A stretch of DNA of 64,000 nucleotides, taken from Pirellulales bacterium. Lineage in GTDB: Bacteria > Planctomycetota > Planctomycetia > Pirellulales > PALSA-1355. The stretch lies in NCBI GenBank assembly GCA_963733035.1, contig CAVTBU010000005.1, positions 1,120,001 to 1,184,000 of the forward strand, read 5' to 3'. This document shows, one piece after another, positions 22,793-64,000 of the stretch. Numbering within the stretch: the first letter of the stretch is position 1; each line of letters begins with the position of its first letter. The notes under the pieces were generated by a model. The model saw only the letters and a program-made list of their open reading frames with translations. It ran no database searches and had not been told where the DNA came from. The position numbers and the translations under genes are program-made.

Positions 22793-22879
22793 TTTCGACA
22801 ACCGGCTACCCCGTGCAGCCTAAGCGGCGCGGGGTCCTTGGCTTTGCGTCCCGGCCTTGCGACCGGTTTGCCTTTTCGA
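22793..22879 (-). ncRNA. c-di-GMP-I (GEMM) riboswitch aptamer
   Basis: Minus strand GGCAAA-CCGGTC-GCAA-GGCCGG-GACGCAAAGCC...GGTAGCCGG-TTGTC matches GEMM-I consensus; about 110 nt upstream of pilin. Confidence 0.88.
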
Positions 22880-23084
22880 GGATGGTGGCCCAGGAGCACA
22901 CAGATCGGCTACAAGGCCGCCAAGCTCACGATAGGAAACTGCGAACTTCAGGATGTGACCCGTTCCAATCCCGTTTCGCGCCTTCGAAAGCGCGACTTTG
23001 GTGGGCTATTAGGAAACGTATGTCAACTTCGGGCCGTGTCAAATCGCGGCAAAGCGGTTTGTGCGCAATTTTGTGGCCAGGAGT

Positions 23085-24428
23085 CTAGGCGCCGCTCATC
23101 GCGGCCTGGGCTTCGGCACACAACCGGGCTGCTTCGGCCTCGGTAGGAGCTTCGGCCACGGCCCGCACAATTGGCTCGGTGTTGCTAGCCCGCACGAGCA
23201 GCCATTTGCCCGGCCAATCCAGGCGTAATCCATCCAAACGGTCACTCTGGGCATCGGCGAAATGCCGAGCAACCGCGTCGAATGCCCCGGCGATTTTCTC
23301 CCTCGGCAGGGAGAGCTTGGTTTTAACGATCGCATAGCGGGGCAGTTCATCGACCAGGGCCGCCAGCGGCTGGTCTCGGGCTGCCATCGCGTCGAGCGTC
23401 ATTGCCATGCCGACAAAGCTATCGCGCACCAGACCCACGCGGGGATCGATCGCACCGCCGTTGCCTTCCCCGCCAAATATCGCTCCCTCGGCCAACATTC
23501 GGTCGACCACGTTCGCTTCGCCGACGGCCGAGCGAAAAAAGGGAACCTTGTACTTCTCGGCAATGTCCTGCGCCATGCGACTTGTGGAACAATTGGTTAC
23601 AACCGGCCCCGGCTGACCTCGCAACCGGTGGTCGACGCAAATGGCCAGCGTGTATTCCTCGCCAACATAGCGTCCCGCGGCATCGATCAGGGCCAGGCGA
23701 TCGGCGTCCGGGTCCTGGCAGAACCCGACGTCGCAGCCGTTGGCCACGACCGCCGATAACACGCCCGCGAGATTTTCGGCCGTGGGTTCGGGCGTATGGG
23801 CGAAGTGCCCATCGGGCGTGCCTCCCAGCATCGTCATCGTGCAGCCCAACTCCGCGAGTAATTTCCGGCCAAGCACGCTACCGGATCCGTGATTGGCATC
23901 GAGTAGCACTTTGAATTTGCGACCGCGGATGCGTTCGACATCGACCGTCGCCAAAACCAGCTGCAAATGCCGCGCAATCGAATCCTGGCACGAGTGGATC
24001 GTTCCGACCTCGTCGTACGTGGCCCAAGCGGGTGCCTGCTCGCGATAGCGCTCGATTACCCGAGCGCCGGCCTCCTCGGGAATCACGCGGCCGTCAGGAG
24101 AAAAGAGCTTCAGACCGTTATATTGCAGTGGATTGTGGCTGGCGGAAATCTGGATGCCGCCGGCCGCAGCGTGCTCGCGGACCAGCACACCGGTGGTTGG
24201 AGTGGCGGCGACTCCGGCGTCAAGAACATTGCAGCCCAGGGCCGTCAGGCCGCCCTTGAGCACGGCTGCCAGCATCGGACCGGTCGTGCGACCATCGCGG
24301 GTGATTACGACGGTGCCACCTCGCAGCGGCACCGCAAAGGCGCACGCATAGCGTAAGGCGATTTCCGGAGTCAGGCTGTCTCCGACAATTCCCCGCAATC
24401 CGGAGACACTGATAATCGGCTCGCTCAC
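23085..24428 (-). CDS. glmM: Phosphoglucosamine mutase / phosphohexomutase
   Basis: SVSGLRG, SASHNP, DPDADR, GGEGNGG, RASNTEP motifs. Confidence 0.85.
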   Translation of the reverse strand: MSEPIISVSGLRGIVGDSLTPEIALRYACAFAVPLRGGTVVITRDGRTTGPMLAAVLKGGLTALGCNVLDAGVAATPTTGVLVREHAAAGGIQISASHNPLQYNGLKLFSPDGRVIPEEAGARVIERYREQAPAWATYDEVGTIHSCQDSIARHLQLVLATVDVERIRGRKFKVLLDANHGSGSVLGRKLLAELGCTMTMLGGTPDGHFAHTPEPTAENLAGVLSAVVANGCDVGFCQDPDADRLALIDAAGRYVGEEYTLAICVDHRLRGQPGPVVTNCSTSRMAQDIAEKYKVPFFRSAVGEANVVDRMLAEGAIFGGEGNGGAIDPRVGLVRDSFVGMAMTLDAMAARDQPLAALVDELPRYAIVKTKLSLPREKIAGAFDAVARHFADAQSDRLDGLRLDWPGKWLLVRASNTEPIVRAVAEAPTEAEAARLCAEAQAAMSGA

Positions 24429-33412: not shown

Positions 33413-33486
<74 letters not shown>

Positions 33487-58999: not shown

Positions 59000-59164
59000 C
59001 AAGATCCTCGTCAAACAGTCGTTGCGAAAGGTACTTCGAATGGGCTCTGAATTCTAGTTCACGGGGGCGGGTCGCACCACCGACGAGAATCTCGGGTGGT
59101 GTCCTAACAGTGAGGTGGTCGGATGGGAGGTCCGGTGAGGGCCGTGATTGGGGCTGTTTTTGCA

Positions 59165-59986
59165 TCAGTCCATGTAATTGTATTGGGGATGCATTCGGCA
59201 TTTTCCGGAATCGTACCCGTAGACAAAGCAGGTCCTGGTTTTATGGGGGCTCTTGGACGTGTCGAGATATTCGGCGTAGGCGATCACTATGATCACCCCG
59301 TTTTCAGACAGCACCCCGATATCTTCGTCGTTCAGCGGCATCGTATCGATGACGTTGTATGTCGTCGATGCGCCCGGTGCGAGAACGGCTTGATGCTGTG
59401 TTGCGTTGGCTGCTGTATGCAGCGCGGTAGAGATATTATCGATATCGATTCCGAGATCCGGGTAATGCGCCAGCACATCATCGTTCTGAAAGACTATCTG
59501 GCCGCCATCGCTGACTTTGATTTGTACGGCCACGGCATAACCAGTGACGATGGCCGGCGTCTTGCCTACATTTTTGAGCTGAATTGTCCCATGAATTGTA
59601 TCTGGAATTCCTGGTGGAGCGATTTCCGGCACATCAAAGCTCAGCCATGGCCGCTGGTCCAGCCGCATGACCTCCCATTGCTTGTCGGTGGCGTCCCATT
59701 GCCAATAGCCGACTATCACTTGGCCCAGCGTGAAAATCACCAAACTGGCGGAAAATATGAGCTGCCAGAACGCATAGCGACCAAATCGCCGTTTTGGCTG
59801 TTTCTTGGTTCTATCGGGCTTGGTTGTGTCATCATCGTCGCCGGGTTTCTCTGCATTGACAGACTTCTCTGGGGCCAGAGGCTCAGCGGGTGGCGCTGGT
59901 GGGGCCTCCTGATTGTTGGGTGCCTGCTTATTGCTCTGTCGCTTGCGCTCACGTCTGCGGGCCTTACGCTGGGCTTTCGTGGACAT
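59165..59986 (-). CDS. Hypothetical single-pass membrane protein (accessory)
   Basis: Basic/disordered N-terminus, one TM, DQRPWL followed by beta-rich domain. Confidence 0.65.
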   Translation of the reverse strand: MSTKAQRKARRRERKRQSNKQAPNNQEAPPAPPAEPLAPEKSVNAEKPGDDDDTTKPDRTKKQPKRRFGRYAFWQLIFSASLVIFTLGQVIVGYWQWDATDKQWEVMRLDQRPWLSFDVPEIAPPGIPDTIHGTIQLKNVGKTPAIVTGYAVAVQIKVSDGGQIVFQNDDVLAHYPDLGIDIDNISTALHTAANATQHQAVLAPGASTTYNVIDTMPLNDEDIGVLSENGVIIVIAYAEYLDTSKSPHKTRTCFVYGYDSGKCRMHPQYNYMD

Positions 59987-60077
59987 TTCTCGTCGTCCTT
60001 CCGAACCTGACGCCTGAGTGTGATGTCAGTAGGGGCATGTAACCAATCTTTTCCGCCGTTTAATCGGTCGCTCAATG

Positions 60078-60172
60078 GGAGAGCGGCCCGCGTCTTGGCG
60101 GCGCAGGTGTTTTATAAACGCCCGTAGGGAGCGGCCTAATCCGCTGCCTGAGTTCGATTCTCACGCTCTCCG
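60078..60172 (+). tRNA. Non-canonical 8/4 tRNA (allo-tRNA-like), anticodon TAT, long variable arm
   Basis: 8-bp acceptor GGAGAGCG/CGCTCTCC, D-stem GCGTC/GGCGC, anticodon stem GGTGT/ACGCC with loop TTTATAA, variable stem AGCGG/CCGCT, 4-bp T-stem TGAG/CTCA with TTCGATT loop, discriminator G. Confidence 0.85.
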
Positions 60173-60346
60173 CTAGCGCTTTCTTCGCGCAGCCTTAAGC
60201 AGTATCTCCCGAGCCCACGTAGACGTGTTCGCACCGGCTGCGGCGTCTAGCTCAGCTCGCTCTTGCTCAGTAAGGCGGATGCGCAGTTCCGCGCTCTTTC
60301 GCTCGTCTGGCTCTTTGGGGGGCCTTCCCCTAGATGTAGTTTCCAT
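60173..60346 (-). CDS. Small ribbon-helix-helix/MobC-like DNA-binding protein
   Basis: GRPP...LRIRLTEQERAELDAAA...STWAREILL; divergent from transposase. Confidence 0.75.
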   Translation of the reverse strand: METTSRGRPPKEPDERKSAELRIRLTEQERAELDAAAGANTSTWAREILLKAARRKR

Positions 60347-60357
60347 GCGATTTATCA

Positions 60358-60414
60358 TAGCAACAAAAAATATCCCCGCAAGGCTATTGCATCCTAATTA
60401 TTTGTTGCTACAAT
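60358..60414. promoter_or_regulatory. Divergent promoter with inverted-repeat operator
   Basis: TAGCAACAAA (60358-67) / TTTGTTGCTA (60401-10); TTGCAT-N16-TACAAT (60387-60414). Confidence 0.55.
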
Positions 60415-60559
60415 AAATCGTAGTGATTGGGAGTAATGATCCCAATAAAAAACCCCGACTCGGCCCTGGCAGGCTGAATCGGGGGACAAACAACCAGGCT
60501 CTCGCTAGGCTGCTGTGACAAGCCAATTCTAGCGGAAGCCGCAACAAAGGCTACCCGCG

Positions 60560-61585: not shown

Positions 61586-62038
61586 AAGCGGCATATGGGC
61601 AGCACTGGACATGGTTTGTATATTGTTGTATATTTCAGTTAAGCAGGAGCAACATGCCTTCCGATATTGAAGGGGGTACCAAGATGGTCGCGCCGAGGGA
61701 AGGGGACAGTCAGCGGATTCGGTTTGATGCCGCCGTTCCCATGCCCAAAAAGACCGTGCGCGTAATTGGCTACGCGCAAAAAGAAGGCCGAACGATTCTC
61801 AAAAACGATGGCAAATATCAGCATATCGTGGACATCGAGAAGCGTTTGGTTGATTTTGGAAATCTTGAAGAAACCTGCGATCTGGACATCCGCAGTTTTC
61901 ACGAATTTTTTGAATTGCGCGAGCGCGGAGGACTGTTGGGAAATATAAACCTCAGGGTGTTTTTTGCGCATCTCCCTGAGCGGAATGAAATCGTGATCTT
62001 AAAGACGTACAAAAAGGAGAGGAACGACCAAACGCCAC

Positions 62039-63423
62039 TGAACCTACCCACGTTTGGTGGGCGCGCTGTGGGGTTATTTGTTGGACATTGGGTTTGAGTT
62101 TGGGGTATTGGGTTGGCGACCCGCGAGACCCTTCGCGGGTCTTGCGCGGTCGCGGTGCTCGTGGGCGGATGATGCTTGGAGAGCGGTATCTGCCAGAGTC
62201 CGCCGGAAGGCTGGGGCGCCGCTGGCGAGGCTTTCTTCGTACTCCACCGGGCTCAAGTGCCCCAGCGACGAATGACTCCGACGACGATTGTAGAACACTT
62301 CGATGTATTCAAACAGGCTTTGTCGAGCGACCTCTTGAGTCGTGTACTGTTCGTGATACACCAGCTCCGTCTTCAGCGTGCCGAAGAAGCTTTCCGCGAC
62401 GGCATTGTCGTAGCAGTTGCCACGGCGACTCATGCTGGCTTGCAGGCCATACCGCGTGAGCAAGCCCTGGTAGTCGTCGCAGGCGTACTGCACGCCCCGA
62501 TCGCTGTGATGCAACACCTCGTTCTGCGGCCGCCGCTGCTCGATCGCCAACCGCAGCGCCCGCAAGCACAAGTCCGCAGCCAGCGAATCGCTGGTGGCCC
62601 AGCCCACGATCTTCCGCGAACACAAGTCGATCACCACCGCCAAGTACAACCAGCCCTCGGCCGTGCGGACGTACGTGATGTCGGCCGCCCAGGCCCGATC
62701 GGGCTGCGGCTGGTAAAACGCCCGATTCAGCCGGTTCGGAGCGATCGGATGGGCGTGACGGCTTTCGGTCGTCCGGACGCGGAACCGGCGATGCATTTTC
62801 GAACGCAGACCGGCGGCACGCATCAGCTTGGCCACCGTGTTCTTCGAGCAGCGAACGTCTTCTGCGATCAGGTCGCGATGCACGCGCGGCGAGCCGTACA
62901 CCGCGCGGCTCCGCTCGTGCACGCGGCGGATCTGGTCGGTCAGCTTCGCCCGCCGCTCGGCGGTTACGCTCGGCGCACGCTTCCACCAGGCGTAGTAACC
63001 GCTCCTGGTTACCTGCAAAACTCGGCACATCACGTTCACCGGAAACTCCCGCATGTGATCCTTGATGAACGCGAATCTCAGGGCTGGTGCTTGGCGAAGA
63101 AGGCCGTCGCTTTTTTTAAAATCTCACGCTCCATGAGGAGCCGCTTGTTCTCCTCCCGCAGCCGCCGCAGTTCCGCCCGCAAAGCCGAGTCACCGCTCGC
63201 GCTGACGCCCACTTCCGGCCCGAACTTCTTCAGCCAATTGCGGATCGAGGCGGCGTCCACGCCCAGGCTCTTGGCCGCCTCCACGACCGTATAGCCCTGC
63301 TGGTTCACCAACTTGACCGCCGACACCTTGAACTCACGCGAATACACTCGACGACCCATGACACGCTCCTTTCACCGGCATTATGCCAGTTCTGTCGCGC
63401 GCCACGAATCGTGGGGAAGGTCA
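62039..63423 (-). mobile_element. IS3 family insertion sequence, 1385 bp
   Basis: TG...CA ends, imperfect IRs TGAACCTACCCACGTTTGGTGG / TGACCTTCCCCACGATTCGTGG, 4-bp target duplication CCAC (62035-38, 63424-27). Confidence 0.95.
62074..63359 (-). CDS. IS3 transposase OrfA (63078-63359) / OrfB joined by -1 programmed frameshift
   Basis: OrfA YSREFK HTH; A7G slippery site at 63110-63117; OrfB WAADITY, HSDRGVQY, DNAVAESFF. Confidence 0.93.
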
Positions 63424-63565
63424 CCACCATACATCGTGATCATCCTTCGCGATCGGCTCGCGAGGTATCTCGATGGCCAATTGCAGGAAGGAATTGCGAC
63501 TCACCCGAAGTCGAAACATCGCACTCGGTAAAGTTGCGACTCCACCAACGGAGATGGAATTAATC

Positions 63566-64000
63566 ATGTCAGTCACTACAGAGCGAAAGAGATTTGTGCA
63601 GAAAGGCGCCGAGCGTCTGATTAGTTTGCCTAGTGATAAGCTGGAACAACTTCAGCAGCTCCGCGACTATTTCGGTCGCGCCAGAACACAACGGGAGCGC
63701 CGCGAGATAATTGATGCTGTAGCCGAGCTGATTTGGCCACCCAATGACGGAACAAAGGCGGTAAATCTTGAATTAGGCATCGACAAGAGAGCCCGTGCCA
63801 AGGTAGACAATTACCGAGAGCAGGTTGGGAACGCAATTCGGCGGAGACGCGAGAAGCTGAATATGACCCAGGAAGAACTTGCGAAACTAGCCGGCATCCC
63901 ACAAAGCCATGTTTCGCGACTTGAGCAAGGGCGACATGCGCCGACTCACATTACTGTCAAGCGGCTGGCGAAGGCACTGAAAACTCGCCCCGCTAAGCTC
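63566..64000 (+). CDS. XRE-family HTH protein (HigA-like antitoxin), runs off window edge
   Basis: Manual translation ...VGNAIRRRREKLNMTQEELAKLAGIPQSHVSRLEQGRHAP...; directly downstream of RelE-like gene. Confidence 0.85.
   Translation, partial: MSVTTERKRFVQKGAERLISLPSDKLEQLQQLRDYFGRARTQRERREIIDAVAELIWPPNDGTKAVNLELGIDKRARAKVDNYREQVGNAIRRRREKLNMTQEELAKLAGIPQSHVSRLEQGRHAPTHITVKRLAKALKTRPAKL

Follow-up and report, generated by a model that had tools for sequence, protein, structure and literature searches.

The stretch of DNA that we have analysed (hereafter the window, i.e. 64,000 nucleotides from the genome of a Pirellulales bacterium) contains, close to its right edge, a gene for a non-canonical tRNA with the anticodon UAU, which belongs to the published class of allo-tRNAs and has its fixed place inside an IS1-like transposon. 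A putative promoter motif of the ECF-sigma type (ECF, extracytoplasmic function), the tRNA gene, a convergent gene for a ribbon-helix-helix (RHH) protein, an operator-like repeat and the transposase gene follow one another in this order, and we refer to this arrangement as the module. The features of the element on which the description relies are the following, in window coordinates:

59087-59094: target-site duplication of 8 bp, GAATCTCG; the same 8 bp flank both ends of the element
59095-59120, plus strand: left terminal inverted repeat, 22 of its 26 bases being equal to the reverse complement of the right end
59165-59986, minus strand: cargo gene of 273 codons, divergent from the tRNA gene; the protein is basic at its N-terminus and contains a single hydrophobic segment
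60003-60027, plus strand: ECF-sigma-like motif GAACC-N17-GTC, a putative promoter located about 50 nucleotides upstream of the tRNA gene
60078-60172, plus strand: allo-tRNA(UAU) gene of 95 nucleotides, with an 8/4 acceptor branch and G73, and without an encoded CCA
60173-60358, minus strand: RHH gene, convergent with the tRNA gene; its probable start is Met5 (about 57 residues) and its stop codon abuts the 3' end of the tRNA gene
60348-60420, no strand: inverted repeat of 24 nucleotides (arms 60348-60371 and 60397-60420, 88% complementary) between the start of the RHH gene and the transposase gene
60446-60485, minus strand: terminator-like hairpin CCCCGA...TCGGGG followed by T6, located in the 5' leader of the transposase gene and conserved in the window copy and in loci L039, L044, L048 and L049
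60560-61585, plus strand: IS1-like DDE transposase of 341 residues, with an N-terminal zinc finger and with ATA codons at residues 220, 247 and 255

The tRNA gene and the conservation of its fold

The acceptor stem of the window tRNA is formed by GGAGAGCG, which pairs with CGCTCTCC at the 3' side in 8 of 8 perfect pairs; the 5' strand is followed by a linker of four nucleotides (GCCC), by the D stem-loop GCGTC-TTGGC-GGCGC and an A, and by the anticodon stem-loop GGTGT-TTTATAA-ACGCC, whose loop, UUUAUAA, presents the anticodon UAU. After the anticodon arm, CGTAGGGA precedes the variable stem-loop GCGGC-CTAATCC-GCTGC (a stem of 5 bp) and a C; the T arm, TGAG-TTCGATT-CTCA, has four pairs and the T loop TTCGATT, and the discriminator is G60172. 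The acceptor, anticodon and T stems are all perfect in the window copy. No CCA is encoded, which is normal in this genome, since only 7 of the 96 tRNA genes that are called in it encode CCA. ARAGORN reports a tRNA-Ile(tat) at 60078-60173, and RNAfold yields -48.3 kcal/mol for the gene, compared to -33.3 +/- 3.1 kcal/mol for shuffled sequences (z = -4.81, with 0 of 200 shuffles being as stable). The gene is real: the cloverleaf of 95 nucleotides with an 8-bp acceptor stem, a 4-bp T stem, the anticodon UAU, a long variable arm and a discriminator G, which the original prediction had proposed from the sequence, is confirmed by the sequence itself, ARAGORN and RNAfold. A single copy is present in the host genome (6.65 Mb in 10 contigs), both by BLAST and by a covariance model that we have built.

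It had also been expected that standard finders would miss such genes, and this is the case: at the gathering thresholds of Rfam, no model matches at 60078-60172, the tRNA model included, and ARAGORN finds only 6 of 30 homologue loci (L001 and L009-L037). In E-value mode, the top Rfam match is bacterial tRNA-Sec (RF01852), with 25.2 bits against a gathering threshold of 47 and an E-value of 0.0095. The window tRNA resembles tRNA-Sec in its 8-bp acceptor stem and long variable arm, but has the anticodon UAU instead of UCA, a T stem of 4 instead of 5 bp, and a different D arm; from a canonical tRNA-Ile it differs in its 8/4 branch, long variable arm and G73, in place of a 7/5 branch, a short variable loop and A73. 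The pairs G1-C72, G2-C71 and A3-U70, as well as G73, agree with the tRNA-Ser(GCU) of the host, the first six acceptor pairs being identical; together with the long variable arm, this bears out the proposed allo-tRNA-like gene with a Ser-like body. Eight unpaired or alternatively paired nucleotides precede the variable stem, unlike in the host tRNA-Ser.

A DNA search through 33 genomes of the same GTDB family has revealed homologues in 17 of them, often in multiple copies each; in the three other genomes of the same genus, the DNA search found no homologue. The alignment of 26 family copies supports the fold through covariation, which had been named as a check of the prediction: 91.9% of its cells pair, compensatory changes occur in 13 of the 27 pairs, none of 500 column shuffles reaches any of five measures, and structures that are slid by 1-3 columns drop to 48-61% paired. 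Similar values come from 52 matches in 51 genome records outside this set (among the matches listed), where 91.1% of the cells pair, compensation is seen in 13 of 27 pairs and 0 of 500 shuffles reach this, an alignment that leans towards the model because it was fitted to it. The variable stem of 5 bp carries compensatory changes at up to 5 of its 5 pairs, and the anticodon stem, also of 5 bp, has an A28/N46 mismatch in the family alignment. Double compensations in loci L021 and L035 fix the D stem at positions 13-17/23-27; the D arm thus has a stem of 5 bp and a loop of 5 nucleotides, preceded by the linker of four, which contradicts both the D-arm register of RNAfold, now rejected, and the Sec-like D arm of the original prediction.

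While the stems covary, the anticodon loop N-UUAUA-N is retained in 44 of 46 full-length loci (among the matches listed), G73 is found in the window copy and in nearly all of its relatives, and positions 1-28, i.e. the 5' half, are nearly invariant in sequence across the copies. The window copy is the best-formed of the 26: the pair G9-C86, which gives a 9/3 split, is present in the other 25, and the window copy alone is 8/4, with A86 pairing with U72.

Two forms of the T loop are seen in the 46 full-length loci (L050-L129): the usual GGGTTCGATTCCC in 19, and GGGATCGTAACCC in 21; the latter swaps positions 54 and 58 (T/A to A/T), as though a 54-58 pair were retained. In addition, some copies (L056, L072 and L113, also L074, L093 and L106) lack everything beyond the conserved 5' half, ending inside the anticodon loop; three such half copies end directly after the CTTA of CTTATAA, and the palindromic DNA of the anticodon loop may be a favoured site of insertion or recombination.

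Mukai et al. (2017, PMC5389517) define allo-tRNAs by an acceptor branch that is split 8/4 or 9/3, combined with a long variable arm and with G or U at position 73; the UAU group is the most abundant anticodon group, with 186 rows in the supplementary table, and Clostridia, Proteobacteria and Acidobacteria are named as hosts. The likeness of the tRNA described here to this group comprises the 12-bp acceptor branch (8/4 or 9/3), the long variable arm, G73, the anticodon loop CUUAUAA and the acceptor GGAGAGCG...CGCUCUCCG, which recurs in several rows of the table; the published class was itself found through its likeness to tRNA-Sec. As for the differences, among 60 of the 186 rows almost all are of an 82-85-nucleotide type, labelled ‘major (delta 9-10)’, with no linker, a 6-bp D stem and a tetraloop, whereas the present subtype has about 90-95 nucleotides, the GCCC linker, a 5-bp D stem and a 5-nucleotide loop; three strings of 14-15 nucleotides from the 5' half of the window tRNA have no occurrence in the file of the supplementary table. 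The tRNA-Sec-like D arm (long stem, tetraloop) and the lengthened anticodon stem of allo-tRNAs are likewise lacking from the window tRNA; this mismatch marks a subtype and does not exclude it from the class, because the cloverleaves of the UAU group are called ‘slightly different’ by Mukai et al., who also mention a ‘five-stem junction’ as an alternative fold. The publication places allo-tRNA genes near transposon-related and toxin-antitoxin genes and, in the parts cited, presents no transposon ends, RHH partner, promoter motif or AUA codon bias. The window tRNA is accordingly a member of the published allo-tRNA(UAU) class, as a different subtype that occurs in Planctomycetota, a phylum that those parts do not name.

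The transposon and its conserved module

The element that carries the tRNA gene measures 5.3 kb, a nested IS3-family element included, and its right inverted repeat is located at the window-equivalent positions 64392-64417 (in L038), ending 417 nucleotides past the window. Relatives with the same end design are L045, where the inverted repeats match in 26 of 26 bases between copies of the duplication CTGGGGGC, and L039, with the duplication CACCGCGC; a deletion derivative, L043, is flanked by AGGTCTTT. The 5' end of the tRNA gene had at first been taken as the left end of the element, because the homology between copies starts at nucleotide 1 of the tRNA, from where it runs through the RHH gene and the transposase gene; this was rejected, as the true inverted repeats and duplications are located about 1-2.4 kb upstream. 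When the tRNA region was aligned locally with the 3' flank of the transposase gene to look for inverted repeats there, chance matches alone were obtained.

The transposase matches the IS1 equivalog NF033558 with an E-value of 5.4e-22 and 78.7 bits, below the cut-off of 100, and exceeds the cut-offs of the zinc domain NF050000 (32.3 bits, cut-off 28) and of PF03400 (27.5 bits, cut-off 24.1). We take it as characteristic of the IS1 family that its members have terminal inverted repeats of about 26 bp that begin with GGT, produce 8-bp target duplications and include single-ORF (open reading frame) members with passenger genes. The present elements resemble this family in their zinc-finger DDE transposase, the inverted repeats of about 26 bp beginning with GGT and the 8-bp duplications, seen in four elements; they differ in the lower equivalog score and in having the tRNA-RHH pair and variable cargo aboard. 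The cargo on the left is simply variable between elements: the 273-residue protein of the window, which has no Pfam or NCBIfam family, has homologues upstream of the tRNA gene in L011/L044, L012/L025 and L022, while in L041 and L046 a DUF3800 gene is located divergently upstream.

The host genome holds a second, decayed element, on contig C8 (74032-77630, L174). Its left end matches in 25 of 26 bases and its RHH gene of 55 codons is intact; its tRNA gene has decayed so far that the covariance model no longer detects it, and its transposase gene, with 89% identity, contains an in-frame TGA and retains ATA at two of the three positions of the window copy.

The tRNA-RHH pair is not bound to one type of transposase. 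By tblastn, an IS1-type transposase (31-79% identical) is located at about +450 to +1500 in most of the loci that match the covariance model (among the matches listed); in L041, L042, L046, L047 and L050, the pair precedes an IS4-family transposase instead (in L047, DDE_Tnp_1 with an E-value of 1.2e-17), and in L042 a perfect 20-bp inverted repeat surrounds the module at -1834/+1882. In 23 of 26 loci, the RHH frame shows the conserved signature RGRP...RhT..ER...AA...S.W.R..L..AA; it stops at +87 to +96 and has 32-53% identity to the window copy. Its pattern being conserved, at an identity of about 35-50%, the notion that this small minus-strand ORF is an artefact of a plus-strand orfA was rejected. 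Among 19 RHH members, Pfam matches are to NikA-like proteins in 17 (best E-value 1.8e-07), to DUF6290 in 14 and to TacA1 in 6, and a profile search of the PDB gives NikA (2ba3, E-value 0.004) and a DUF1778 antitoxin (6ajm, E-value 0.012). The arrangement is not that of a type II toxin-antitoxin pair: the neighbours of the RHH gene are the convergent tRNA gene and the divergent transposase gene, and no conserved toxin ORF stands beside it. Nor does PADLOC report, at an E-value of 0.01 or less, any defence family for the module or the genes around it, apart from generic helix-turn-helix matches on one ORF.

Upstream of the tRNA gene, 18 of 27 family loci contain GAAC[CT]-N16-19-GTC between -61 and -88, compared to 16 of 943 random windows of 160 nucleotides, and it occurs in 25 of 45 further loci (among the matches listed); the motif resembles, as we understand them, promoters of ECF sigma factors, and a simple sigma-70 scan gives no sigma-70-like site at this place. 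The inverted repeat of 24 nucleotides is likely to be an operator: repeats of differing sequence are found at the same place in L039, L045 and L048, and the repeat overlaps TTGCAT-N17-TACAAT, which faces the transposase gene and is not called by the simple sigma-70 scan. On the minus strand, the hairpin with T6 would suit an antisense RNA over the start of the transposase gene; on the plus strand, 60446-60485 reads AAAAAAC followed by the hairpin, and the simple scan makes no terminator call there. The leader of the transposase gene (60437-60485) contains a Shine-Dalgarno-like GGGAG, then ATG, AAAAAAC and the GC hairpin; a -1 frameshift at AAAAAAC and the hairpin, joining the leader to the transposase, was considered and rejected, as both are in the same frame, and we take the hairpin for a putative terminator of the minus strand.

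The tRNA is spread patchily across the order, as expected of mobile DNA, with matches in 70 of 401 sampled genomes and in 18 of 30 families. An exact-pattern scan with one genome per species returned at least 118 stretches, from which 80 loci were taken for comparison; the covariance model matches 51 of these, each with a Planctomycetota title (Planctomycetaceae, Pirellulales, Thermoguttaceae and one Phycisphaeraceae, among the matches listed), the remaining 29 being fragments or chance matches within genes of other phyla. A covariance-model search in 150 other genomes across the phylum gave no match, with only 28 candidates per genome under strict filters, which is not evidence of absence. 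In metagenomes, several relatives of the transposase (L200, L205, L221, L237, L242, L248 and L267) have other tRNA or tRNA-like genes just upstream, namely UAU forms of 74 and 67 nucleotides, Gly-UCC (twice), Arg-UCU, Leu-CAG and an ochre-reading form with UUA; among these may be tRNA genes of the host that happen to adjoin the insertion.

AUA codons of the element and the function of the tRNA

The codon that corresponds to the anticodon of the tRNA is rare in the host and frequent in the genes that accompany the tRNA. In 2223 long ORFs of the host, a crude gene set from one genome, ATA makes up 2106 of 50555 Ile codons (4.2%), or 1.84 per 1000 codons; in the window element, the ATA share of the Ile codons is 4 of 18 in the cargo gene, 2 of 3 in the RHH gene, 3 of 16 in the transposase gene and 0 of 10 in the nested IS3. 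The earlier impression that AUA is rare in host genes and commoner in adjacent accessory genes is therefore upheld by these counts. Downstream of the tRNA copies, 36 plus-strand ORFs were collected, and the 27 that align to the window transposase over more than 200 residues were retained: they contain 80 ATA among 424 Ile codons (18.9%, or 9.2 per 1000 codons), with one to five in every gene. ATA is the strongest codon outlier of these transposase genes relative to the host (4.5-fold, the next being CTA with 1.8-fold). AT-richness is not the cause of the excess, since the GC content at third codon positions (GC3) of the linked transposase genes, 0.746, exceeds that of the host genes, 0.719; and the excess resides in frame only, where ATA occurs 9.21 times per 1000 compared to 1.80 in the host, the values for the other frames being 7.27 compared to 5.73 and 2.66 compared to 2.47.

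The ATA codons are also placed at particular sites, as 67 of the 80 are located in alignment columns 275-317, which correspond to residues 220-255 of the window transposase. One ATA-rich column holds 16 ATA, 3 ATT, 1 ATC and 7 Val codons, another 14 ATA and 12 Met codons, and a third 11 ATA and no other Ile codon. In the 16 columns that bear ATA, 58% of the residues from other codons are I, L, V, M, F or C and about 4% are S or T; control columns give 64% and 7% for ATT, and 57% and 10% for ATC, while in Ser-codon columns S or T make up about 26% and none of the eight most frequent residues is hydrophobic.

Other transposase genes of the host do not have this excess: 12 distinct frames contain 5 ATA among 142 Ile codons (3.5%). 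The linked IS4-type transposase genes contain 14 among 99, and 46 distinct RHH genes contain 20 among 81. Relatives of the transposase from metagenomes were collected through the protein and are hence independent of the tRNA; in the five that have a UAU tRNA or tRNA-like gene upstream, 17 of 81 Ile codons are ATA.

We consider that the tRNA is a working AUA decoder that is co-adapted with its own element, a reading to which we give a probability of about one half and which would entail that the tRNA is processed, charged and used by the ribosome. That it meets AUA codons on the ribosome is suggested by the in-frame excess of ATA in the linked genes, which is otherwise hard to explain. According to this reading, the tRNA would decode the rare AUA codons of the transposase, RHH and cargo genes of the element, so that production of the transposase would depend on the tRNA of the element itself, be it through coupling or through gating; the tRNA might be expressed in a stress-dependent manner from the putative ECF-dependent promoter, and the RHH protein would probably repress the promoter of the transposase gene. 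As to the amino acid, the acceptor stem, G73 and the variable arm point to seryl-tRNA synthetase, while the conserved anticodon loop speaks for Ile and the sites of the codons call for Ile or another residue of similar hydrophobic character.

Two known systems are comparable. In Streptomyces, the bldA gene encodes tRNA-Leu(UAA), a canonical chromosomal tRNA with cognate charging, and TTA codons are found in regulatory genes; the proposed likeness is that a GC-rich genome would confine a rare A/T-rich codon to a few genes, whose translation would pass through one dedicated, regulated tRNA, with the difference that the window tRNA is non-canonical, mobile, located on the same element as its target genes and known from its sequence alone. 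Phages carry tRNAs for codons that are rare in their host, and here too a mobile element supplies the decoder of a codon that is commoner in its own genes than in those of the host; in this case, however, the carrier is a transposon of the insertion-sequence type, with a single tRNA, of the allo type, and the occurrence of ATA at particular columns suggests control rather than bulk supply.

Several observations weigh against a role in decoding. The host can read AUA without the window tRNA, because it has TilS (177.7 bits, cut-off 93.6), CAU tRNAs and a canonical tRNA-Ile(UAU) of 74 nucleotides on contig C6; the CAU tRNA at 33413 of the window is one of two non-initiator CAU tRNAs in the genome. 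The identity rules of isoleucyl-tRNA synthetase (IleRS) from Escherichia coli do not fit G73, G4-C69 and a long variable arm. The idea that the variable arm might present GAU to IleRS does not apply here, as the variable region contains GAT in only 4 of 26 relatives and lacks it in the window copy. The fold itself departs from a canonical tRNA core by its linker of four nucleotides; acceptor pair 7 is mismatched in 15 of the 26 family copies and in 39 of 51 relatives, 34 of 51 lack the pair that closes the anticodon stem, the T loop AUCGYAA replaces UUCRA in 21 of the 46 full-length loci (among the matches listed), and an extra helix of RNAalifold, CCC(10-12)/GGG(50-52), can pair in 24-26 of the 26 sequences, without covariation. 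On the side of the codons, Fisher p-values overstate the significance, because the transposases are interrelated and come from different hosts and the baseline is one genome; moreover, the 50 metagenome relatives without a detected tRNA also contain 76 ATA among 706 Ile codons (10.8%), at a lower GC3 of 0.65, and when the upstream regions of 13 metagenome transposases, either ATA-rich or close relatives, were scanned for more divergent UAU stem-loops, the outcome was a single AT-rich match, due to chance. The sequencing runs, where 0.04-0.05 of the sampled words were found, with pieces over 59950-60030 (DNA), 60230-60380 and 60442-60505, have no contig that spans the window tRNA gene and gave no evidence of expression or processing for the host organism; a contig from a soil metatranscriptome over 60075-60129 is the 5' half of a relative, with 6 mismatches in 55 nucleotides, and may be due to DNA carry-over. 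Finally, when Mukai et al. (PMC5389517) turned six UAU species into CUA variants, none suppressed the Ser146TAG CAT reporter in E. coli and two of the six were lethal, and the authors concluded that most allo-tRNA(UAU) are probably unused in translation. The six tRNAs are other sequences than the window tRNA; the tests, which required Ser or Ala, say nothing on charging with Ile, because the swap of the anticodon would remove a possible determinant of IleRS.

The alternative that deserves most attention, though we regard it as unlikely, is that the RNA never enters the ribosome and acts as a structural or regulatory tRNA-like RNA, e.g. as a processing site for RNase P or RNase Z or as a stabiliser. 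Alternatively, it might form the start of a read-through transcript that is antisense to the RHH mRNA and relieves the repression of the transposase by the RHH protein. The negative suppression tests of Mukai et al. (PMC5389517) and the conclusion of these authors agree with such a role, as do the departures of the core from the canonical form, the variant T loop and an acceptor pair 7 that is often mismatched, while the near-invariance of positions 1-28, which goes beyond structure, suggests sequence-specific recognition; the stop codon of the RHH gene abuts the 3' end of the tRNA gene in all loci examined, so that convergent transcripts must overlap. Such an RNA leaves unexplained, however, why the linked genes have an in-frame excess of ATA at Ile-type sites that other transposases of the host lack, why the UAU anticodon is near-invariant, together with U33 and A37, and why the acceptor, anticodon and T stems of the window copy are perfect. 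A second group of explanations accepts decoding and proposes a Ser-charged missense tRNA, i.e. a toxin, a stress-induced mistranslation device or a brake that yields inactive transposase by placing Ser at AUA. The acceptor stem in common with the host tRNA-Ser(GCU), G73 and the long variable arm speak for it, two ATA-rich columns of the transposase are otherwise polar (E/N/D and N), and Mukai et al. (PMC5389517) have shown for two other allo-tRNAs, with the anticodons GAG and UAA, that they place Ser at codons for Leu, with toxic effects in E. coli, next to the two lethal UAU-derived variants. Against this stand the columns themselves, whose residues resemble those of ATT and ATC columns and not those of Ser-codon columns, and the nucleotides before the variable stem, which are unlike those of the host tRNA-Ser. 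The sites that bear ATA are of the Ile, Val or Met type, and harmful AUA-to-Ser mistranslation should have purged these codons from the genes of the element, the transposase gene included; they are kept and enriched instead, which is the opposite of what the original prediction of harmful mistranslation would lead one to expect, and we judge charging with Ser for such ends to be improbable.

The same early reading had offered a codon-selective toxin, an anti-phage device or a decoy for nucleases as uses of the gene, none of which finds support in a tRNA gene that is a fixed part of a transposon and has no defence family nearby by PADLOC. A function as decoy or back-up when tRNAs are attacked by anticodon nucleases or similar toxins, tied to toxin-antitoxin-like neighbours, would agree with the location of allo-tRNA genes near toxin-antitoxin systems that Mukai et al. 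(PMC5389517) note, with the weak TacA1/DUF1778-type matches of the RHH protein (6 of 19 members, and PDB entry 6ajm) and with an HTH_3 gene and a faintly Gp49-like ORF downstream of the transposase gene. The conserved partners of the tRNA are, however, the RHH gene and the transposase gene, and not a nuclease or a GNAT toxin; the downstream pair is found in the window element only, with a Gp49 match that is not significant (E-value 0.16), and a decoy predicts no enrichment of AUA in linked genes, so that we consider this explanation highly improbable. Hardly more is to be expected of a decaying relic, i.e. a functionless tRNA pseudogene that hitch-hikes on the transposon: mismatches or truncations are found in many copies, and the element on C8 has a decayed tRNA gene and a transposase gene with an in-frame TGA, but the compensatory changes in 13 of 27 pairs, the conservation of the tRNA in spite of linked transposases that are down to 31-40% identity, and the occurrence in 70 of 401 genomes and 18 of 30 families of the order already disfavour it.

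If the tRNA is indeed a decoder of AUA for its own element, a further step may be proposed tentatively, and with more doubt than confidence: AUA would be a private codon, in that its presence at fixed sites of the transposase and an AUA-reading tRNA under an ECF-like promoter would together act as a switch of transposase synthesis, forming a mobile and self-contained analogue of bldA. In a bolder variant, the tRNA would carry Ser, and the AUA sites would yield a second, altered form of the transposase that would regulate transposition.

The allo-tRNA(UAU) group is the largest of the published class of odd tRNAs, and its link to transposons or toxin-antitoxin systems could only be guessed by Mukai et al. 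(PMC5389517). The mobile unit is now defined base by base, the tRNA-RHH pair is seen to travel with two unrelated families of transposases, and the class is extended to Planctomycetota; the codon counts are the first evidence at the level of codons that matches allo-tRNA(UAU) to the AUA codons of the genes of its own element. In the literature covered, which leaves out most subscription journals, no publication was found that joins allo-tRNAs with Planctomycetota, and no relevant one on tRNA genes inside IS1-type insertion sequences. The outcome is a testable claim: by means of a private tRNA, a transposon would have its own transposase under control. This would be, if true, a new mode of self-regulation for mobile DNA and a natural tRNA-codon pair that is partly apart from the decoding of the host, relevant to genetic-code engineering, where allo-tRNAs already serve as a chassis.

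Other features of the element, the window and the host genome

Between the transposase gene and the right inverted repeat, the window element contains three further features:

61654-62038, plus strand: ORF interrupted by an IS3 insertion, with a faint likeness to Gp49/HigB-type proteins that is not significant (Pfam Gp49, E-value 0.16, 12.5 bits, cut-off 23.9)
62039-63423, minus strand: nested IS3-family element of 1385 bp, with orfA at 63078-63359 and orfB at 62074-63054, and CCAC at both flanks
63473-64000, plus strand, continuing to the window-equivalent 64018: HTH_3 (Xre-type) regulator of 181 residues (PF01381, E-value 2.1e-16), the last gene before the right inverted repeat

The nested IS3 is a later insertion that is located outside the module and splits the ORF upstream of the HTH_3 gene; it is 99.5-99.8% identical to copies on contigs C4 and C6, scores 352.9 bits with NF033516 and is present in the genome as six copies, given by six rve matches of equal score. 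To the left, the locus adjoins a polysaccharide-synthesis cluster (epimerases, GT2, MFS and methyltransferase genes), which gives way to DNA of lower GC content, dropping from about 0.61 to 0.54 from 59001 onwards.

In the host genome, contig C6 carries a large tRNA array (240284-243299, continuing to about 264000), with nine tRNA genes in 1.5 kb, among them the canonical tRNA-Ile(UAU) of 74 nucleotides; some of the calls in this array are over-long (Arg-tct of 90, Cys-gca of 92 and Ala-ggc of 89 nucleotides). Most anticodons occur twice among the 96 tRNA calls of the genome, and the array resembles a second set of tRNAs. Within the window, the tRNA-Gly(gcc) of 87 nucleotides that ARAGORN calls at 23668-23754 on the minus strand has no support from Rfam and no cloverleaf, and is probably a false positive, while 22794-22882, also on the minus strand, is the aptamer of a c-di-GMP-I riboswitch (RF01051 of Rfam, with 60.3 bits against a gathering threshold of 35).

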